Assembly: GCF_008000775.2 (NCBI RefSeq)
Contig: NZ_CP042905.2
Location: 1,050,001 to 1,082,000 of the forward strand
Direction of reading: 5' to 3'
Source: Promethearchaeum syntrophicum
GTDB taxonomy: Archaea; Asgardarchaeota; Lokiarchaeia; Sigyniarchaeales; Promethearchaeaceae
Length of the DNA: 32,000 nucleotides
A program made the position numbers and the translations under genes. Below, piece after piece: positions 11,608 through 20,701 of the stretch. Each line of letters starts with the position of its first letter. Positions within the stretch are counted from its first letter, which is position 1. The notes beneath the pieces are model-generated. The model saw only the letters and a program-made list of their open reading frames with translations. It was not told the origin of the DNA and did no database searches.

Positions 11608-12267
11608 TTATGCAGAAATTGGTAAATTGTTTACTTGATTGAATTTTCTACCACAATGTTCACAAAATGTATATTTGTTCTCTGTTAACATAGCTTTCAT
11701 TTTTGGTGTGAATTCTTCTCCACAATCTGTGCAGAAAAACTTTACTTCATTGTGGGATGAAGTTTTTGGGTGAGAAACAATCATTGTTCTTGAATTTAAT
11801 TCCTCAGATCTAGAAGTATATTCAGGTTGATTTACCCGAACTGTCTTCATTTCTTTAGGTCTTGTGACAACATATTTTCGAGGTTGATGATGATGCTGAT
11901 GATGATAATGATAGATTTTTTTATGCGTCTCTTCTTTGAACAATTTAGGATAGAATACATGAACAATTTGTTTTAAATTTGAAAGATAATTATCAACAAT
12001 TGTTGCTATGTCTTCTCCCCTTGAAATCAGTCCAATGGGCGCAGTTATAAATACAACAATTAATGTATAGAACATAATTGATAATCCCATAAAGGTTGCT
12101 TTCAAAATTTCAATAGTCAACAGGAAGGTTAATTTTAAAATTTCAAATGTAAACCAAATTGACAAAATCGTTATAACAATTGCAAGAATTAAACCAATAA
12201 TTCTTGTTTCTAAACCACCGCTTAAAAACCAGTTTTCAAGCGTATTCCATGAGTAATCGAGTATCAT
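11608..12267 (-). CDS. Membrane protein with a cytoplasmic His-rich tract and a C-terminal CxxC-x19-CxxC zinc ribbon
   Basis: 219 aa. Hydrophobic N-terminal half with at least 2 TM segments. YHYHHQHHHQ tract. C-terminus FCTDCGEEF...FCEHCGRKF. Confidence 0.7.
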   Translation of the reverse strand: MILDYSWNTLENWFLSGGLETRIIGLILAIVITILSIWFTFEILKLTFLLTIEILKATFMGLSIMFYTLIVVFITAPIGLISRGEDIATIVDNYLSNLKQIVHVFYPKLFKEETHKKIYHYHHQHHHQPRKYVVTRPKEMKTVRVNQPEYTSRSEELNSRTMIVSHPKTSSHNEVKFFCTDCGEEFTPKMKAMLTENKYTFCEHCGRKFNQVNNLPISA

Positions 12268-12497: not shown

Positions 12498-14531
12498 CTA
12501 TCCTTTTATCAAGGAGAATTCGTAATCAGCTAACCCAATTGTAGGACTAACTAATAGATAACAAAATTCTTCTGGTTCGACGAATCCCGCTAGATCAATT
12601 GGTGATTCTAATGCATTTTCTAGTTCACTCAATGTGAAATATATAATATCATGGTATTCCATCCCAAGGTCCGTTTCAACAGCTGTGATCATAGTGACAT
12701 AAAAATCAGTTTCAGCAGGTGGTGGTACTATGAAAGAAATAAGTCCATCCGCATCGTCGATTATTTCACCATTAAGTGCTATGTTATCCACCCACCAACC
12801 TGGATCTTCGTATCCCCAATCAGTCATATAACGGAATTGTAATTGAACCACTTGACCAGCATATGCAGAAAGGTCAAAACCCATGTTGATCCAACCTAGT
12901 GAATCACCACACAATCCAGGTAATTCTTCAGCGATGGCAGGATAACCTTCGTCCTCGATATCATAAGTCGTATATTCATTTGCTAAAGATGTCCAAGTAG
13001 TACCATAATCAGTGGAAATTTGCACAAATCCATAGTCCCAATTTGGTTCAATAATATATTTAGTGTCGAAACTAAACAAAGGTGAAGCACCATAGGCTGA
13101 CAAGTTAATTTCTGTATACAATTTAATATCACTCTCTGGAGCAGACGGAGTTGAATAATATTCGAGGTCGCCATCACCATCTTCATCAACTAATTCCCAT
13201 GTTGCCAAAGTGGCATAATTATCACCATCAAAATCAAAAGTGGTTATAAAACGATCATGAATGTTGCCCAATTTAATATAATCCGTTCCATAAGAGCCAG
13301 TCATATAAAACCCTGTTTTATCTTGGAGATAACTCACTGTTTCTCCCAATTCAACCCCCGTTACTGTATCATAGGGTTTATTTATATTGTATATCCGGAG
13401 ATAATCTACTGTGTTTAAATCAAACATCTCGTAATTGTACTTTCCATCGCCTATGGAATCGGTATGGAGTAAATTCGCAATGGTCCAATCGAGATAAATG
13501 TCCTCAAATTTTTCCGTATAACCAAAATGTGATAACGTATTCTCAATCCCTGCTACATCTGGAATTCCCGCTTGCACAAAATAACTTAGAAATTCAGCTC
13601 CAAAATGATCCGCTAGATATGCTGCCCACATGAAGGCTTGTCCATAATCCGCGAGAATATTCAAACCTCCTTGATCTCCCCATTCTGTTAGTGAATTGTC
13701 GGGAGTAGCCAAAAAGGCTTCGATATCACCCCAAGGGATATTATACCCGCACAATGGTTCAGCAAACATGGAGCATCCTTCATTCATCCATGATCCATCC
13801 AAAGGGTTATAATCATCATGAATTAAATGTTGATATTCATGGGCAAGTGTAGGTGCATAAACTGTTTCTTTTCGATTAGCAAAATCAGCCGAATCAATGG
13901 ATACGATATTGCGATCAAAAGCATCTTCAAATACTCCCCAATAAAATCCAACAACATAATATGGATATTGTTGATCGTAATATCCCTCATCACGAATGTT
14001 GGAAATCAGAATTACATTACGTCCGGTGGGTTCGAGGTAGAGATCTCCTAAAATGGAATCACTTCCGTTATGGAAATTAGGTGTTCCGAAATATTCGGTA
14101 TCTTTTGGATAAATATTGCTTTCAAATTCAGCTACAAACCATTCGGCGTCTTCAGTAGTAACAACAGGTGTTTCTCGTGAATCTGGATAGCTCATATCAA
14201 TTTGTACCCAAACTTCCGAAAGGTTACCTAGTGCCATTAATTGAAACGCATCGACAATTATTCCCCCTTCAGCATTGTCATCGCTGACATACCATTCCAA
14301 GGTATCTCCTACTAAGTAATAGGAATCACCAGAAGACTGTGGTGAGATACTAAGACTTGATGTCATTGGATATTCTGATATTTTTCTAGAGCGCAGTTCG
14401 GGACCCGCATCATAGGGTTTTTGTTCGACATATTCGGTATTCGGTGAGAGTAATGAGAAACTTGTAATTCCCCCAAAAATTCCTCCTACTATGATCGTTA
14501 CCAATAATATTGGAAAATATTTCGATTTCAT
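12498..14531 (-). CDS. Secreted zinc metalloprotease, M6 / immune inhibitor A (InhA)-like
   Basis: 677 aa. N-terminal signal/anchor KYFPILLVTIIVGGIFGG. HExxH in TLAHEYQHLIHDD followed by WMNEGCSMFAE, as in M6 peptidases. Acidic, Lys-poor mature region. Confidence 0.8.
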   Translation of the reverse strand: MKSKYFPILLVTIIVGGIFGGITSFSLLSPNTEYVEQKPYDAGPELRSRKISEYPMTSSLSISPQSSGDSYYLVGDTLEWYVSDDNAEGGIIVDAFQLMALGNLSEVWVQIDMSYPDSRETPVVTTEDAEWFVAEFESNIYPKDTEYFGTPNFHNGSDSILGDLYLEPTGRNVILISNIRDEGYYDQQYPYYVVGFYWGVFEDAFDRNIVSIDSADFANRKETVYAPTLAHEYQHLIHDDYNPLDGSWMNEGCSMFAEPLCGYNIPWGDIEAFLATPDNSLTEWGDQGGLNILADYGQAFMWAAYLADHFGAEFLSYFVQAGIPDVAGIENTLSHFGYTEKFEDIYLDWTIANLLHTDSIGDGKYNYEMFDLNTVDYLRIYNINKPYDTVTGVELGETVSYLQDKTGFYMTGSYGTDYIKLGNIHDRFITTFDFDGDNYATLATWELVDEDGDGDLEYYSTPSAPESDIKLYTEINLSAYGASPLFSFDTKYIIEPNWDYGFVQISTDYGTTWTSLANEYTTYDIEDEGYPAIAEELPGLCGDSLGWINMGFDLSAYAGQVVQLQFRYMTDWGYEDPGWWVDNIALNGEIIDDADGLISFIVPPPAETDFYVTMITAVETDLGMEYHDIIYFTLSELENALESPIDLAGFVEPEEFCYLLVSPTIGLADYEFSLIKG

Positions 14532-14902
14532 TTTTTTCCCCTTAATTTTTTCATATAGTTTTACCCATTTTTGTATATTATATTTAAAATCACACTATTT
14601 ATGGGTAGTTATGAGTTCTTTTTGATTTGTATATAAGAAGTCTAGAACACTTTTCCCCATTTCAAACAAACGGTTAATTATTCAAAATTTCAATTAAAAA
14701 TTCATGAAATAAAGTATCAGAGAATATATTGAAGAAGGGATTACTTAACTAGAGTAGGAAATTATATTGAAATCGTTAGAATTATTGATGAGGCTAACCT
14801 TAAGATTTTTAAATCTCAATCAGTTATTTTTATTTTCGACTTTCTGGAAAGTCTACCCACAAAATAAAAGGTTCTATAAAAATAAAATCAATCTTGGATA
14901 AA

Positions 14903-15883
14903 ATGAGAAAATTAAGCGTGAAAGGTTTAAATATTGAAGAAATCCTTCCGGAGATATTTTTTATACATCAAATTCATGCATCGGCATATTTTACGCGTTG
15001 TGATGGATTACTTATTATGCCTCAAGATAAGAGGAATTTATGTCCAATCATTATTGATTTAAACATCGAGCCTGAATATATTCAAAAATTACATTATGTT
15101 TTCAAATTAAACCAATATTCAAGAATTGATTATATATGTTCCCATGGACATATGGATCATATTGCCCATGTATATAAATGGGAAGAATTAGGTGCATTTA
15201 TACATTGTCCGTCTCCGCATCAGAATAATTTAGTAAGTCTGGATGCTTTTATAGGTGATTTCGGATTTTTGAAGGAATTAGATATAGATATTGTCAAACA
15301 TTTAGGAAAATTAAATCATTATAAACCTTGTAAAAAAAAACCTAATGTATTTCAGCCTGGTGATATTCTATTCTTTGATAACCTTAAAATTCAAACGATT
15401 CCGTTTGAAGGACATTCACTAGGGCATATTGGCTTCTTATTTTCTAAAGAGAGACTATTCCATATCAGCTGTCTCGGATTTGATCTACAAAAACCTGGCG
15501 AGGATCATTTCGGTCCTTGGTATGGATTTGAAGAATGTTCAATTGAATTGTATAAAGAGTATATAGATAATGCGGAGAAAATCTTTTTCAATTCTTCTGA
15601 TATTTTAACCTCAAGTCATTCTTATGTTGTTAGAAAAAAAAATCGTCAGCCTTTTGATTATATACGTAGGAAAATAACGCAAAATCAAATAAAAATCAAG
15701 AATGCAGTTCAAAAGTATAATGAAAAGCAAAATAAAGGCGTTCTAATAGAATATTTACTATCTTTAGATTTAATATATCCTAAGTCCAAAATGGAAGATC
15801 CTTTACGTTCTATTTTTAGGTTTTGGGAATCTTGGATGATTAAAAATCACTTAAATTCCATAACTAATTTAATAGAAGAGTAA
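14903..15883 (+). CDS. MBL-fold metallo-hydrolase
   Basis: HxHxDH zinc motif in CSHGHMDHIAH; further His residues (FEGHSLGH). The ORF track starts at TTG 14894. ATG 14903 sits about 26 nt after a TATA-like CTATAAAA (14874-14881), consistent with a leaderless start. Confidence 0.8.
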   Translation: MRKLSVKGLNIEEILPEIFFIHQIHASAYFTRCDGLLIMPQDKRNLCPIIIDLNIEPEYIQKLHYVFKLNQYSRIDYICSHGHMDHIAHVYKWEELGAFIHCPSPHQNNLVSLDAFIGDFGFLKELDIDIVKHLGKLNHYKPCKKKPNVFQPGDILFFDNLKIQTIPFEGHSLGHIGFLFSKERLFHISCLGFDLQKPGEDHFGPWYGFEECSIELYKEYIDNAEKIFFNSSDILTSSHSYVVRKKNRQPFDYIRRKITQNQIKIKNAVQKYNEKQNKGVLIEYLLSLDLIYPKSKMEDPLRSIFRFWESWMIKNHLNSITNLIEE

Positions 15884-15911
15884 TTTTATCATAAAAATCG
15901 AAAAAGAAAAT

Positions 15912-15961
15912 CGAGGAGGAAGTATTTATCAGCAGGCCCCACTGCATGAATTTCCTCCTCG
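15912..15961. other. GC-rich hairpin: perfect 10-bp stem CGAGGAGGAA / TTCCTCCTCG, with an inner GCAG/CTGC stem, 29 nt after the MBL stop
   Basis: Complementarity checked base by base. It stands out against an AT-rich intergenic background. Strand of action unknown. Confidence 0.5.
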
Positions 15962-16142
15962 CGGATCAGTCCACCTTCTCCGAATATATATAGATAATTT
16001 CCTCCTTATAAACTTAACGCGATTTAATTCGACAAAATGTCAATCAATACATAAATTTTCTACACTTCGATTAGAAAGCTTTTTTTTATCAATTGAGTAT
16101 ATTAGTTAATTGGAGAAAAACAAACAATTAAAGTGAATTTTA

Positions 16143-16685
16143 TTGTCATCAGACCTAGAAAAGAATCAGATTATGAAGAATTTCAATTATACAAGGAAAT
16201 ATTTTAAAGATATTCATGCATTTTTTTGGTGTGAGATATGCCAGGAAATCTTATCTGTTCCCATTGATAGAAATATTATTGCAGAAAAATTAGATACAGG
16301 ACTCTACGTACACTTGTATTATCACACCAATCCTTTATATGATCCTGAAGATCCGGAAGATAAAAGTAATATTCCCCACACAAGTTTAATATATATTGAT
16401 AATAATCATGATGTTCGGGGTGTTCGGTCATTTTTCGGAACGGAAATGTCTTCTGATGAAATTAAGAAAGGCTCGAGAATTCCGATAGTAATAAAAGAGA
16501 TTCCTAAGATGGTTCTTCAACTAGGGATGTTAACTCAAGATGAATTTAATATCCTTAAATTGTGTGATGGGAATAATTCTGTTGAAAATGTTGCAGAAAT
16601 TGAAAAAAAAACCCTTAAATCAATTGAGAAATTAATTTTTAAGCTAAAAAAAAAACGGCTGATTAATATAATTACAAGAGCTTAG
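16143..16685 (+). CDS. Hypothetical 180-aa protein: N-terminal CxxC plus His-rich beta-like region, C-terminal winged-helix-like region
   Basis: FWCEICQE, YVHLYYHTNP, HTSLIYIDNNHDVRGVRSF, then LTQDEFNILKLCDGNNSVENVAEIEKKTLKSIEKLIFKLKKKRLI. TTG start in the track; alternative ATG at 16173. No family recognised. Confidence 0.6.
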   Translation: MSSDLEKNQIMKNFNYTRKYFKDIHAFFWCEICQEILSVPIDRNIIAEKLDTGLYVHLYYHTNPLYDPEDPEDKSNIPHTSLIYIDNNHDVRGVRSFFGTEMSSDEIKKGSRIPIVIKEIPKMVLQLGMLTQDEFNILKLCDGNNSVENVAEIEKKTLKSIEKLIFKLKKKRLINIITRA

Positions 16686-16719
16686 GTTAGATAATCAAAA
16701 AAAAGGTTAGTAAAGTAAT

Positions 16720-17643
16720 ATGAATTCTGAAGAAAAAAATATTGGAGATCCAATGGTATTTGATAATTCAGAAGATGATCTTGATTATAATATAGAAGAA
16801 ATTTACAAAAAGTTACAAAATATTGGCTCTTTTACAATAAATGATTCAAAAATTTATGTTACACTTTTAAAAATTGGATTGTCTAACCCTGCTGTTATTT
16901 CAGAGAAAAGTAAAGTTGATAGAGCTAGGGTTTATGATTCACTAAAAAGATTAGTAAAAAGAGGAATTGTTGAAGAAGAACCTGTGAAAAGAGCACCTCG
17001 TTACCGAGCTTTTCCTCCAGATGTAGTTTTTGGCACAATAAGAAAAAAATTGAATAACCAAATTAACCTGGCAACTTCTTTAGAAAAACAGCTAGCTCAA
17101 ATAAAAACAGAATCAACTGAAAAAAATTCCGTTTGGTCTATTCAAGGGAAGCATAAGATCAATAAGAAATTTTACGAAATTATCCAAAATGCTGAAGAAT
17201 TTTGCTTTATCTTCCTAACTTTAGACTATTCTATAAGTTCAATTAATGAATTAGAATTATTAGAAGGTGTAATAATGGAAAAACTTCGATCTAATCCTTC
17301 ACTAACCATTAAAATTGCATTAAAAATATTCCCGGAAAAAGATGATCAGAAATCAATTTTAAATAGATTATTCCATGCAAATATTGAAATTTTTCGCTGG
17401 AAACCAAAAAGTGTGCTTCCTTTTGGCTTAATTCTTACAGATTCTGAATTTATGCAAACATTCTTGAGTGGAACAGTACCAAAGCCTATGTATGAATTTG
17501 GAATTCTAATGGAAAAAGCTGGACAGGATCAGTTAATGGGATTTAAACATCTCTGCATCTGGGTTTTTTATCAATTGTGTAAAAAGTTGGTTTTTACGAA
17601 GACCCAAAGAAATATTCAAATTGAGGGCGATGATGATGAATAG
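16720..17643 (+). CDS. TrmB-family transcriptional regulator-like protein
   Basis: 307 aa. After an acidic N-terminal extension, YVTLLKIGLSNPAVISEKSKVDRARVYDSLKRLVKRGIVEE matches the TrmB wHTH pattern. The C-terminal domain is of TrmB-like length. Confidence 0.75.
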   Translation: MNSEEKNIGDPMVFDNSEDDLDYNIEEIYKKLQNIGSFTINDSKIYVTLLKIGLSNPAVISEKSKVDRARVYDSLKRLVKRGIVEEEPVKRAPRYRAFPPDVVFGTIRKKLNNQINLATSLEKQLAQIKTESTEKNSVWSIQGKHKINKKFYEIIQNAEEFCFIFLTLDYSISSINELELLEGVIMEKLRSNPSLTIKIALKIFPEKDDQKSILNRLFHANIEIFRWKPKSVLPFGLILTDSEFMQTFLSGTVPKPMYEFGILMEKAGQDQLMGFKHLCIWVFYQLCKKLVFTKTQRNIQIEGDDDE

Positions 17644-17745
17644 AAAAATAAATCTTAAATTGGATAACTCAGAAATAGGTATAAACTACCCAAAAACTTT
17701 TATATTTTTTAAAATTTAATTCAAATGGCTTAAGAGGTAAAATTA

Positions 17746-18285
17746 ATGGATTACAAATGTAAAATGAGCATTATAGGTGATGAGAACGTTGGAAAAACCT
17801 CCATAATTCTAAGATATTTAAACAACACATTTACAAATCAATATATAACCACTCTAGGGGCTGATTTCGTTGATAAAGTATATTTTAAATCTGATCTTCC
17901 TTCTCTTAACCCAGAAGATAGTTTAACAGTAACAATTTGGGATTTAGGAGGACAAAAATCCTTTCAAGAAATATCTACACTATATTGCGAAGGATCTGCA
18001 GGCATTATGATTGTTTTTGATGTGTCTAATGTAGAAACTTTTAATTCGGTTCCAAATTGGATCGATTTCGCTAAAAATTGCTGTCCCAAGGCTCAATTAG
18101 TATTAATCGGAAATAAAAGCGATTTAGAATCGACTATAGATGCCGATAAGATTCGAAATTTAGAAAAGGAAATTGGGAGTAAAGTATATTTTAGTTCAGC
18201 CAAAGTGAGTTTAACAAACAAACTCTCAAATATCAACAATATATTTGAAAATATGGCCGAAAACTTATTGAAAATTTCGCGATAA
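17746..18285 (+). CDS. Small GTPase of the Ras superfamily, Rab-like
   Basis: G1 GDENVGKTS, switch I YITTLGADF (Rab-like IGxDF), G3 WDLGGQ, G4 GNKSD, G5 SSAK. 179 aa. No C-terminal Cys prenylation motif (ends LLKISR). GAGGT lies 9 nt upstream of the ATG. Confidence 0.9.
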   Translation: MDYKCKMSIIGDENVGKTSIILRYLNNTFTNQYITTLGADFVDKVYFKSDLPSLNPEDSLTVTIWDLGGQKSFQEISTLYCEGSAGIMIVFDVSNVETFNSVPNWIDFAKNCCPKAQLVLIGNKSDLESTIDADKIRNLEKEIGSKVYFSSAKVSLTNKLSNINNIFENMAENLLKISR

Positions 18286-18630
18286 TTTTTTTTCTTCTAA
18301 TTTAAGGGAACAAGAAGCTTTCTATCATCTATAATATGATCATTTACTACTGTAAGTTAATTTAATACAAAAAAAAAATTCGTGGTTAAAATCGTTTGAT
18401 GGAAAAAAAACTTATAAGTAGATATACAATATGAATGGTCCCTATGAGAAATTTTATCCGAAATAAGGAATATTAAATATTTCAACACGCCTCGATCATT
18501 TTCTATTACTCGAGTCATTTTATTTTTTGAATTAGAAAGACCAAATTAGAACTAAAATTTTCTTTCTCATTTTTCATTTTATTGAATAAATAACCTCGAA
18601 TTCAATTAATAATTTTTATCTGTAGTAAAA

Positions 18631-19041
18631 TTATAGAGTTAAGAGATCTTTTAGAACCGGTTGGGCATTTTCTATTGCCCAATCAAGTAATTTTGCTTGA
18701 TATTGCAAAGTTTCTATATCTTCTTCAGGTGGGGCGACTGTAGCTATTAAAAAGCTTGTACTCTCTAATTTTGAATTTATAACTACAACATTCCTGCATA
18801 TAATCGTTGCATCTGCATATTTTATCTTAATTTCGCGCATTTCTGAAGTTAAAGATAACTGTACCTTAGCTTCTGAGCACGTTTCAGAAAATAGTGCCAC
18901 TATTGGAGCGAGTGTTTTTTCATTTATCGCAGGTGTGGAAACCCCTGCCAGAGGAAGCCCATCGCTTTTTGCGAAAACGGCGGCTTTAAATCCATTTTCT
19001 GTTAATCCTTTCAATATCTCTTTTAAAATGTGAATACTCAT
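18631..19041 (-). CDS. Roadblock/LC7 (MglB-like) domain protein
   Basis: ILKGLTENGFKAAVFAKSDGLPLAG... matches the Roadblock/LC7 pattern and size. The ORF track starts at TTG 19056; ATG at 19041 (MSIHIL...) is preferred. Confidence 0.8.
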   Translation of the reverse strand: MSIHILKEILKGLTENGFKAAVFAKSDGLPLAGVSTPAINEKTLAPIVALFSETCSEAKVQLSLTSEMREIKIKYADATIICRNVVVINSKLESTSFLIATVAPPEEDIETLQYQAKLLDWAIENAQPVLKDLLTL

Positions 19042-19091
19042 AATTAAAAATCCCAATATTTGTTCGTATAATTTTATAATTTCCTTAGAAA

Positions 19092-19607
19092 TTAAAGTTT
19101 TTTTATGAAAGCGCTCACAAGCCCATTTTCTAAATTTAGAAAAGCTACCGAGGGTCGTGCTTCAGTTTCTCCAGTAAAACCTCTTAAATTTTTTTGAAAT
19201 CGAGGTTTTAATAAAGATCCCGGGTTTATCATCAATACTCCTTGAGGACTATCTTTAATTGAAGGTAAATGAGAGTGTCCATATATAAAAACTCTGATAG
19301 ATTTTTCAGGAAAAGATGCAAAATCATTAAGATCGTGTGTAATCCCGATTTTTATTCCTTCAAATTCCAGTGTTAATTTTTTAGGCCATTTAGAATTAAA
19401 ATCTACATTTCCAGAAACTGCATTAACTGGTTTTCCCGTTTCAGTTGATAGGTCATCAATAAATTGATCAACGCTGATATCACCTGCATGGATTATAGAA
19501 TCTACATCTTTGAAAATGGTTTTTAAAGTTTTAAGCAATTTCGGATATCCTACTGATTTCAATTGAGTTGCAGTAATATGCGAATCAGATAGAATACCGA
19601 TAATCAT
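19092..19607 (-). CDS. YfcE/MJ0936-family metallophosphoesterase
   Basis: 171 aa. Motifs GILSDSH (DxH), HAGD (GD), GHSH (GHxH). Confidence 0.85.
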   Translation of the reverse strand: MIIGILSDSHITATQLKSVGYPKLLKTLKTIFKDVDSIIHAGDISVDQFIDDLSTETGKPVNAVSGNVDFNSKWPKKLTLEFEGIKIGITHDLNDFASFPEKSIRVFIYGHSHLPSIKDSPQGVLMINPGSLLKPRFQKNLRGFTGETEARPSVAFLNLENGLVSAFIKKL

Positions 19608-19651
19608 AATTTTAACCTAAATCAATTTTTATAATCTAAATTCATTTAAAC

Positions 19652-20701
19652 TTAGAATAGACTCATTAACCATAATATAATTATCAAGGCAAAATCTAAT
19701 GCGAAAAATGCCTTATTTGGTATTTCAATAATATAGTCTTTAAAGAAATTAAATATCCCCTTAATATGTATAATCAAAGATTTCCTATATTTTACCAAGA
19801 AAACAATACTAAAAACAAAGATAGGCAAGTATATTATTAAAAAAGTTTCTTGCCAAAATGGAACTCCATCCATATTCCTTCTGAGAATAATCGCGGAAAT
19901 GACATTATTTGTCCAATGTGCAAAAATCAACGGCCATAATTGCTTTTTTGAGATATAGAAATATGCAGATGTAATTCCAATAACGGTTCCATTGAATCCC
20001 CACCAAAATGGATAGAAAATCGGACTTGCGCCTTCATATGGTAAAAAAATATAAGAAAAATGAGCCATACCGAATAAAAACGCACTAAAGATAAAAGCAG
20101 TGCTCTTATTTACCGTTTTTTCTCCCATATATATGTAAAATCCTCTAAAAACAAATTCTTCCCTTAAAGCAATAAAAAAATGAATAATAAATGTCATTAT
20201 TATCATCAGACCGATATCATACAGCAAATAATTTCCTAAAATAGATTCTGGTGATATAAGTGCATCTGCTTGATATTCCAATACATCCAATTTAAATATT
20301 AAAGGAATGACATAACTGAAGAAATCTAATGGAATATATATTACACAGATTAAAAACAAGGCAGATTTTAACTGAGAACGAAAATTTTTAAATGTAAATC
20401 CTTGAAATAATAATTTTAAGCTGGGATCTGCCTTTTCTTTAATACTAAGTGATTCTTTTTCAGATGCAGAATCGTCTTCGTCCAATCTTAAAAATGATTT
20501 ATTCATAAAATAAAATACAATCATGGCTGCAGATATATTCATTAAAGCATGACCTAAATAGGTCAAAATAATTCTCACGGGTTCATTTAATGGAATAAAA
20601 TCGAGAATTACATCAAAAATCATACGAAAAATAAAATAAAATACTGCTAGAAATATTATAGATAGAGCAAAATACATTCGTTTTTCAATATTTTTATCCA
20701 T
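19652..20701 (-). CDS. CPBP-family (CAAX/Abi) intramembrane glutamic endopeptidase
   Basis: Polytopic membrane protein with REEFVFRGF (EExxxR), FGMAHF (FxxxH) and HWTNN motifs. Confidence 0.8.
   Translation of the reverse strand: MDKNIEKRMYFALSIIFLAVFYFIFRMIFDVILDFIPLNEPVRIILTYLGHALMNISAAMIVFYFMNKSFLRLDEDDSASEKESLSIKEKADPSLKLLFQGFTFKNFRSQLKSALFLICVIYIPLDFFSYVIPLIFKLDVLEYQADALISPESILGNYLLYDIGLMIIMTFIIHFFIALREEFVFRGFYIYMGEKTVNKSTAFIFSAFLFGMAHFSYIFLPYEGASPIFYPFWWGFNGTVIGITSAYFYISKKQLWPLIFAHWTNNVISAIILRRNMDGVPFWQETFLIIYLPIFVFSIVFLVKYRKSLIIHIKGIFNFFKDYIIEIPNKAFFALDFALIIILWLMSLF

Follow-up and report, generated by a model that had tools for sequence, protein, structure and literature searches.

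A conserved gene pair of a TrmB-like DNA-binding protein and a Rab-like small GTPase in Promethearchaeum syntrophicum MK-D1 and its relatives

The small GTPases of Asgard archaea are usually seen as forerunners of the switches that control membrane trafficking in eukaryotes, and almost none of them has a known partner or function. Which neighbour, then, does such a GTPase work with? We addressed this question at one locus of Promethearchaeum syntrophicum MK-D1, a lokiarchaeial organism and the first Asgard archaeon to be brought into culture, within a stretch of 32,000 nucleotides (contig NZ_CP042905.2, positions 1,050,001 to 1,082,000; hereafter the window, whose numbering is used throughout). 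Four open reading frames (ORFs) lie there side by side, with the locus tags DSAG12_01538-01541 (products QEE15711-15714). On the plus strand, a protein with a CxxC motif and a winged helix (CxxC/wH, 16143-16685) is followed by a TrmB-like DNA-binding protein (16720-17643) and a Rab-like small GTPase (17746-18285), and a Roadblock-fold protein lies on the minus strand (18631-19041). A preliminary description of this locus had stressed the neighbouring Roadblock gene, whose family supplies GAP/GEF-type partners of small GTPases, and had hinted at a GTPase module tied to transcriptional regulation. The layout on which it was built is correct: ORF coordinates and motif positions gave the same four ORFs, the same intergenic gaps of 34 nt (16686-16719), 102 nt (17644-17745) and 345 nt (18286-18630), five G motifs in the GTPase and no C-terminal cysteines. 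The Asgard setting that it had recognized is also that of the organism, P. syntrophicum.

The constant companion of the GTPase gene turned out to be the TrmB-like gene. Loci were gathered from the neighbourhoods of GTPase orthologues, from members of the Roadblock subfamily, from TrmB-like homologues in one-genome-per-species and metagenome collections, and from 3 further metagenome-assembled genomes (MAGs), and all their ORFs were scored with hidden Markov models (HMMs). Counting was restricted to loci with at least 700 nt 3' of the TrmB-like gene (74 of 96), and in 73 of these 74 the gene that follows in the same orientation encodes a Ras-family GTPase, at a median distance of about 93 nt when ORF starts are called heuristically. 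The TrmB-like loci form 60 clusters at 90 % identity, 8 at 70 % and 3 at 50 %, and the pair persists down to about 33 % identity. Close relatives, whose GTPases are 74-85 % identical to that of MK-D1, keep the order CxxC/wH, TrmB-like, GTPase and convergent Roadblock. Eight clade-A loci whose sequence extends beyond the GTPase gene (L005-L008, L015-L017, L023; GTPase 46-56 % identical) keep the pair and have a metallophosphoesterase gene directly after it; L015-L017 include Harpocratesius repetitus, whose genus is placed in the family of MK-D1 (PMC8813620). In a distant clade, where the TrmB-like proteins are 32-39 % and the GTPases about 27-35 % identical to those of MK-D1, the pair follows genes for DUF2299 and HIT proteins and a divergent histone gene and precedes a CofC-like gene, with a 410-aa ORF and seryl-tRNA synthetase on the opposite strand. 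There are therefore three main contexts, with minor variants: a divergent histone gene before the pair and a co-oriented CofC-like gene after it; a divergent 219-aa ORF (unk219) before it and a convergent metallophosphoesterase gene after it; and a co-oriented CxxC/wH gene before it and a convergent Roadblock gene after it. Both flanks are wholly replaced between clades and several smaller rearrangements occurred, and the pair survives them all. Within clades, the pairwise identities of the TrmB-like proteins are also correlated with those of the GTPases, with r=0.95 for clade A and 0.85 for clade B. Thus, the genomic linkage of the GTPase with a TrmB-like regulator, the most speculative claim of the preliminary description, is the one that our data support best.

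The source labels of the TrmB-like homologues name Loki-, Thor-, Hermod-, Hod- and Heimdallarchaeota. An Asgard-wide distribution was rejected, as the same 12-gene synteny recurs in three MAGs that bear the labels Heimdall, Hod and Thor, and the identity among their TrmB-like proteins, and between these and one from Loki's Castle, is 77-84 %. Because of this shared synteny and high identity, our claim is limited to a small number of deep clades, most likely all within Lokiarchaeia. A full-text literature search, which covered part of PMC10933270, found no description of a TrmB-like/Rab-like pair. Each gene taken singly is known and carries an annotation; the conserved cassette seems to be a variant, so far undescribed, of the small-GTPase signalling modules found in prokaryotes.

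The neighbours of the pair in the distant clade (L025-L103, e.g., L102 3200-4001) present features of their own. The histone has a lysine-rich N-terminal tail, and its gene and the TrmB-like gene are transcribed divergently, with roughly 500-600 nt between them. On the other side, the same-strand gene 3' of the GTPase encodes a CofC-like guanylyltransferase. These neighbours could point to a chromatin or GTP-related theme, or reflect simple synteny.

What kind of protein is the GTPase? The product of DSAG12_01540 (WP_147662615, 179 aa) consists of a single G domain that matches Pfam Ras (PF00071) with 117.5 bits against a cut-off of 21.6 (E=5.5e-34). Its motifs are G1 GDENVGKT (11-18), a switch-I TLGADF with T36, G3 DLGGQ (66-70, within WDLGGQ) with the catalytic Gln70, NKSD (123-126) and SAK (151-153). 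Cysteines are found at positions 5, 81, 112 and 113 only and the C-terminus reads ...NLLKISR, so that no cysteine is available for prenylation or lipidation. The best 60 PDB sequence matches listed are all Rab, Ypt or Sec4 proteins, with E down to 7e-28, the best being eukaryotic Rab3, Sec4, Rab35, Rab1 and Rab8, which puts the protein closer to Rab than to Ras, Rho, Ran or Arf. On an alignment with Rab3C judged by eye, LGADF, TIWDLGGQ and IVFDVS resemble the RabF1, F2 and F5 regions, and those corresponding to RabF3 and RabF4 (SFQEIS, YCEGSAG) are weak. As it lacks the prenylatable C-terminal cysteines that define eukaryotic Rabs, the protein is to be classed as Rab-like and not as a eukaryote-type Rab. 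This agrees with its existing annotation ('Rab family GTPase') and with the preliminary description, which had called it Rab-like without prenylation cysteines. Both points are correct and already known: Tran et al. 2024 (PMC10933270, Supplementary Fig. 5) list WP_147662615.1 with the MK-D1 paralogues of the 'Rab clade' that have a single domain and credit the genome with 74 small GTPases, and archaeal Rab-like proteins generally lack prenyl cysteines (PMC4915359; also PMC10933270). These missing cysteines, like the abundance of Roadblock genes, are established for Asgard archaea (PMC4915359; Liu et al. preprint; PMC10933270).

The MK-D1 GTPase shares its single G domain, complete set of G motifs, catalytic Gln and short C-terminus without prenylation cysteines with other Asgard Rab-like GTPases (Thor-Rab, PDB 7EZB; MK-D1 paralogues), and differs from them by its linkage to a TrmB-like gene and by a 7-residue insertion that the Rab3C alignment places in the beta2-beta3 interswitch hairpin. 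The distance from the end of the P-loop to the G3 Asp is 47 residues in 19/19 clade-A GTPases and has a median of 58 in clade B; other Asgard Rab-like paralogues have 40 residues there, and H-Ras has 39. The switch-I/interswitch segment enlarged in both clades is a plausible candidate for a partner-binding surface.

The partner, DSAG12_01539 (307 aa), carries an N-terminal winged helix-turn-helix (wHTH) at residues 38-100 that matches Pfam TrmB (PF01978) with 56.3 bits against a cut-off of 25.6 (E=3e-15), and the Pfam scan of the protein found no other domain. It scores far under the cut-offs of the NCBIfam equivalogs for TrmB, TrmBL1 and TrmBL2, reaching 25.1 bits against 530 for the latter (NF041141). 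An AlphaFold2 (AF2) model (predicted local distance difference test, pLDDT, 78.9) shows a wHTH at 25-97, followed by a long helix (100-127) and, at 137-289, by an alpha/beta domain. In Foldseek, this model matched TrmBL2 over its full length (5bpd/5box/5bqt, E ~1e-14), and the C-terminal domain matched 2f5t, an entry for the TrmB sugar-binding domain, as well as the phospholipase D (PLD) fold proteins Zucchini, PLD3 and phosphatidylserine synthase (~1e-5). The match to 2f5t spans only 156 columns of 233 target residues, and no complete sugar/effector-binding domain of the kind that ends TrmB and TrmBL1 was found. TrmBL2, which we take to lack the sugar-binding barrel and for which we know of no reported GTPase partner, would thus share its three-part architecture with the modelled Asgard protein, from which it differs by an identity of 17-19 %. 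The protein is therefore a member of the TrmB family with a predicted TrmBL2-like architecture (wHTH, long helix, PLD-like domain), and neither a sugar sensor nor a TrmBL2 orthologue. Conservation in the family extends over the whole length: the recognition-helix segment S64-x-VDRARVYDSL-x-RL78 is invariant across clades, and so are W139, D169, P234-F-G236, P256, Y258, G261, E265, Q271 and G274 in the C-terminal domain. Inspection by eye showed no HxK-type PLD catalytic motif. According to PMC3031468, TrmBL2 of Thermococcales is an abundant chromatin protein and a global repressor. Two proteins among the ten top-ranked in the MK-D1 proteome bear similar names, the 'TrmB family transcriptional regulator' DSAG12_03376 and the 'GTPase' DSAG12_02329 (PMC11284389); the gene of the abundant DSAG12_03376 is a different one from that studied here.

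Several signals around the pair bear on its transcription. Oligo-T runs are the usual archaeal termination signal. Runs of at least six T are 4-8 times rarer in the spacer that separates the genes of the pair than over the 80 nt 3' of the GTPase gene, with 0.36 against 1.38 per 100 nt in clade A and 0.07 against 0.55 in clade B; in MK-D1, a T8 run begins right after the stop codon of the GTPase gene. Also, a Shine-Dalgarno-like GAGGT (17734-17738, plus strand, within the 102-nt spacer) stands 7 nt before the GTPase ATG and is present in 8/8 aligned Promethearchaeum-type loci. Together with the co-varying identities, this motif and the short, oligo-T-poor spacer support co-transcription, as sequence features can, and do not prove it. 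Scans for sigma-70-type promoters and intrinsic terminators gave counts at the level of shuffled sequence, these models being uninformative for an archaeon.

The explanation that we favour, and that we consider on balance probable, is that the functional unit is a co-transcribed two-gene cassette in which the TrmB-like DNA-binding protein is controlled by binding of the Rab-like GTPase, the Roadblock and CxxC/wH genes lying outside it. What we observe directly is what kinds of protein the parts are and that their genes keep a nearly invariant order although the contexts are rearranged; the mechanism of the pair is what we infer from this. The two genes would be transcribed together, and the soluble GTPase, free of any membrane anchor and with its enlarged interswitch hairpin, would bind a dimer of the TrmB-like protein. 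The binding site would likely be the conserved PLD-like C-terminal domain, which takes the place of the sugar-sensing domain of a classical TrmB. The GTP- or GDP-bound state might then tune DNA binding by the TrmB-like protein, acting as repressor or activator or as a chromatin coat in the manner of TrmBL2. Such a mechanism for a soluble GTPase is plausible in view of two precedents: fusions of Rab GTPases to a histone fold are exclusive to Lokiarchaeota (Schwab et al. 2024, PMC11390915), and bacterial MglA group 3 GTPases are linked to proteins with receiver and wHTH domains (PMC4316618). The wider proposal, that some Asgard 'Rab-like' GTPases are nucleotide-state sensors which switch the DNA binding of a TrmBL2-like protein and not trafficking switches, is made tentatively and may well prove too bold.

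A number of observations weigh against a co-transcribed, GTPase-controlled cassette. Direct contact between the two proteins is a purely inferred step. The count of 73 in 74 is largely non-independent phylogenetically, as it represents about 3 deep clades and 3-5 contexts, and it has one exception, L087, where no GTPase gene follows the TrmB-like gene. Shine-Dalgarno-like motifs are uncommon in the distant clade (9/57), and the MK-D1 spacer contains an insertion of about 40 nt with a T6 run and a TATA-like stretch, from which it follows that the GTPase may also have its own internal promoter there. In a neighbour-joining tree (BLOSUM distances, no bootstrap), clade-A and clade-B GTPases are each monophyletic and are not sisters, and no residue was found that is common to both and missing from other Rab-like paralogues. 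Neither the tree nor signature residues thus supported an exclusive common origin of the two GTPase clades, and a single ancient origin of the partnership is unproven; the GTPase partner may have joined on two separate occasions, or its sequence may have changed rapidly. Also, an ancestral functional link between Roadblock protein and GTPase is possible, given the adjacency of their genes in the deeply diverged locus L009. As to the exceptional locus itself (L087, 5001-5843), a 509-aa ORF on the opposite strand takes the place of the GTPase gene, and the TrmB-like ORF was called N-terminally short, though tblastn spans residues 13-293.

The same conservation of the pair could be explained equally well if the TrmB-like protein were an ordinary, possibly autoregulatory transcription factor of the GTPase operon, with no contact between the proteins and the GTPase acting elsewhere, for instance at the membrane or the cytoskeleton, as would other Asgard Rab-like proteins. 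Conserved pairs of a regulator and another gene are most common for local transcription factors that stand beside their targets, and an invariant recognition helix is what a specific, conserved operator would lead one to expect. However, this leaves unexplained why a full-length PLD-like domain without a ligand-binding subdomain should be conserved, and why one of the 74 GTPases of MK-D1 should keep a dedicated regulator over such divergence. No conserved operator was identified, and no systematic search for one was made. We regard a regulator and its target without contact as the main rival explanation, rather unlikely but to be taken seriously, and the two explanations of the pair that remain, a four-gene module and mere neighbourhood, as less likely.

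The first of these depends on the Roadblock gene. Its product, DSAG12_01541 (minus strand; the ORF could reach 19056), likely starts at the ATG at 19041, which gives 136 aa, the length called in all relatives. The preliminary description had named it a Roadblock/LC7 protein; the fold stood up to comparison of a predicted structure with solved ones, and the Pfam sequence call did not. Against Robl_LC7 (PF03259), the ORF reaches only 12.6 bits (E=0.12), under the cut-off of 23; phmmer and a 10-sequence profile retrieved nothing relevant from the PDB, and a word-based homologue search returned only relatives of 76-90 % identity. Searched exhaustively with HMMER, 1.8 billion representatives yielded just 28 members at E<=1e-3, so that the subfamily is small and divergent. 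A homologue of 45 % identity has a precomputed 'weak' match to Robl_LC7, and UniRef and JGI names of cluster members are Roadblock/LAMTOR2 or Roadblock/LC7/MglB. An AF2 model from a 10-sequence alignment (pLDDT 76.7, predicted template modelling score 0.72) has the topology alpha-beta-beta-alpha-beta-beta-beta-alpha, with the caveat that one of five models was confident and the other four reached 48-54. The top Foldseek matches in the PDB are all Roadblock proteins: 9jue (MK-D1 Roadblock3), 3kye (Streptomyces Robl/LC7), LAMTOR2/3, MglB and Thor Roadblock, with probability 1.0, E from 3e-7 to 4e-5 and template modelling (TM) scores of 0.6-0.75. The model thus supports a Roadblock fold of the LAMTOR2/MglB type with a C-terminal helix.

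This gene could belong with the other three in a single signalling module like the actinobacterial conservon, in which the Roadblock protein would serve as GTPase-activating protein (GAP) and a wHTH protein as guanine nucleotide exchange factor (GEF) or as output. All four genes occur together in L002, L004 and L012-L014 and in part in L003, L010, L011, L019 and L020. The deeply diverged L009 keeps the Roadblock gene adjacent to that of the GTPase (Roadblock 44 %, GTPase 39 %, TrmB-like 39 % identical), and among close relatives the Roadblock protein (76-90 %) is more conserved than the GTPase (74-84 %). Conservons, too, unite a small GTPase with a Roadblock protein and a likely GEF. However, tblastn at 1e-3 and 1e-2 found neither the Roadblock nor the CxxC/wH gene in the eight clade-A loci named above, both are missing from the whole distant clade, and the pair is kept in all of these. 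Conversely, L098 and L099 have a Roadblock member on the same strand after an Rce1-like or metallophosphoesterase gene, facing an alpha/beta-hydrolase, with no GTPase or TrmB-like gene within reach. The pair with Roadblock, the pair without it and Roadblock without the pair thus all exist, a pattern typical of independent units. In addition, the Roadblock gene is convergent with that of the GTPase and so cannot share its transcript, no histidine kinase or DUF742 was detected, and none of 121 prokaryotic Ras-like 'Rup' GTPases was coupled to MglB in PMC4316618. We thus consider a module of all four genes improbable, and neither this idea nor the emphasis of the preliminary description on the Roadblock partner was upheld, the CxxC/wH gene being confined to close relatives and the Roadblock gene missing from many lineages that bear the pair. 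Linkage of the GTPase and Roadblock genes in related genomes, which that description had itself named beforehand as a refuting test, holds in close relatives and in L009 and largely fails elsewhere, so that the Roadblock part of the description is for the most part refuted.

Genomically, the Roadblock gene belongs to another set of genes and is no fixed member of the cassette. In MK-D1, it is the last of a minus-strand string with gaps of 16-50 nt, after a 144-aa ORF, purB, an AIR-synthase-like (purM-like) gene, the gene for an Rce1-like CPBP intramembrane protease (19652-20701) and that for a metallophosphoesterase (19092-19607). In the subfamily (L009, L010, L011, L098, L099 and 18631-20701 of the window), it lies on the same strand 3' of an Rce1-like CPBP protease gene, a YfcE-like metallophosphoesterase gene, or both. 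Contexts of the Roadblock gene were sampled by four independent look-ups, a thin sample; an association of a Roadblock protein with a membrane protease, which we have not seen described, could emerge from them. Where the Roadblock gene is present, its product may serve as a GAP/GEF-type accessory of the GTPase, and it is quite plausible that its adjacency is due to chance or mere neighbourhood.

For the pair itself, passive synteny or chance without any coupling is very improbable: it could draw on the 74 small GTPases of MK-D1 (PMC10933270), on the huge expansion of GTPase and Roadblock-superfamily families in Asgard archaea (Liu et al., bioRxiv 10.1101/2020.10.19.343400), on the synteny among clade-A genomes of a wider block from unk219 to PmbA/TldD, and on unreliable phylum labels of distant loci (77-84 % identity) that make the true breadth smaller, but the pair outlives the replacement of both flanks and smaller rearrangements while its neighbours (Roadblock, CxxC/wH, metallo-beta-lactamase-like ORF, InhA-like gene) come and go, and with an estimated 2 % or so of genes encoding GTPases (74 in a 4.3-Mb genome), chance would give about 0.02 per locus.

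Does the pair correspond to a small-GTPase system that is already known? The genes mglA and mglB, for a polarity GTPase of bacteria and its Roadblock GAP, typically form an operon and point the same way. The MK-D1 locus resembles MglA-MglB in having a Roadblock-fold gene beside a small-GTPase gene, and the Roadblock model superposes on MglB with TM ~0.65-0.70; however, the MK-D1 genes are convergent and patchily adjacent, and the GTPase is of the Ras/Rab type with G3 Asp and Gln, not of the MglA type. The actinobacterial conservon/AGPS (CvnA histidine kinase, CvnB Roadblock, CvnC DUF742 likely GEF, CvnD GTPase) is likewise a small-GTPase module, in which the GTPase, a Roadblock protein and further regulators control gene expression programmes (PMC4316618; conservon abstracts). 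The resemblance is one of analogy only, as no histidine kinase or DUF742 was detected in the four proteins or their neighbours, the GTPase is of another family, the genes do not form one operon and the constant partner is of the TrmB family. An Asgard operon of a LAMTOR1-like Roadblock, a Rab-like GTPase and a DENN protein (bioRxiv 10.1101/2020.10.19.343400) presents the same theme of Roadblock and Rab-like neighbours, whereas the MK-D1 locus has no DENN-domain gene, its Roadblock protein is of the LAMTOR2/MglB type and its conserved partner binds DNA. As each time a defining component or arrangement is missing, the pair belongs neither with MglA/MglB couples nor with conservons, Rag/Ragulator units or LAMTOR1-like/Rab-like/DENN operons. 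The Rab GTPase histones of Lokiarchaeota (PMC11390915) also couple a Rab-like GTPase to a DNA-binding or chromatin module in the same lineage, with the difference that there the GTPase is fused to a histone fold, while that of MK-D1 is a separate gene beside one for a wHTH/PLD-like protein.

The fourth gene, DSAG12_01538, encodes a protein of 170-180 aa in which C30-x2-C33 and the invariant H57 and H61 form a putative zinc site, and whose C-terminal wHTH is weak (HTH_47, E=0.0034). It occurs in seven Promethearchaeum-type loci (including L001, L002, L004, L012-L014) and in L020-L022, with one homologue of 44 % identity elsewhere, in L099. Upstream, a 329-aa ORF (14894-15883) has no significant Pfam match (Lactamase_B, E=0.21) and carries an SHGHMDH motif. 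This pattern, HxHxDH, is typical of hydrolases with the metallo-beta-lactamase fold. The 329-aa ORF is missing from the same eight clade-A loci at the same tblastn thresholds and is limited to the same close relatives as the CxxC/wH gene, so that the two look like one insertion. The spacer between them (15884-16142, 259 nt) shows 83 % column identity over six Promethearchaeum-type loci and contains a 50-nt hairpin (15912-15961; 12-bp and 4-bp stems, -30.5 kcal/mol, z=-4.6) with one compensatory change from C-G to U-A. The hairpin is GC-rich in a genome of 30 % GC, and a TTATAAA box and a T8 run come after it; an Rfam search with it returned no match. The element is a candidate for a small RNA or for a leader with a regulatory role, on either strand. 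A tie between the hairpin and the conserved pair was rejected, as it is found only with the CxxC/wH insertion. The CxxC/wH gene is a recent insertion at genus level, together with the metallo-beta-lactamase-like gene and the conserved hairpin.

The rest of the window offers little that would change this picture. Its G+C content is about 30 % throughout, and scans for tRNA and Rfam families gave no match to either. PADLOC defence models gave weak, wHTH-level matches only (E>=3e-4) for both wHTH proteins and none for the GTPase and the Roadblock protein, and an anti-phage defence system was rejected on this outcome. The AT-rich 345-nt spacer between the GTPase and Roadblock genes (18286-18630) is unique to MK-D1, its closest relatives having 7-35 nt there; it was rejected as a repeat or mobile element, as neither the window nor any of the fetched loci contains it a second time. 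The 219-aa ORF (unk219, 11608-12267), which in clade-A genomes without the insertion is conserved as the divergent gene upstream of the pair, has a weak C-terminal zinc-ribbon signal only (Zn_ribbon_8, E=4e-4). Between it and the 329-aa ORF, in MK-D1 only, lies a 677-aa InhA-like/MAM-domain gene (12498-14531), which L002 and L004 lack; its local G+C of 0.37, against about 0.30 around it, suggests a recent strain-specific acquisition.

The Roadblock link that headed the preliminary description is thus weak, and the locus warns that adjacency of GTPase and Roadblock genes in Asgard archaea does not always mean a functional couple of the MglA/MglB or Rag/Ragulator kind. What the locus provides instead is a concrete and testable pair of partners, DSAG12_01539 and DSAG12_01540, in an organism that is in culture. 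This pair points to the regulation of genes or chromatin, and not to vesicle traffic, as a possible function of an Asgard small GTPase. If this were true, then, together with the Rab-histone fusions of Lokiarchaea, control of the genome by small GTPases would predate or parallel their roles at membranes in the lineage that founded the eukaryotes, and it would be functionally reminiscent of Ran or of the sensing of GTP levels.

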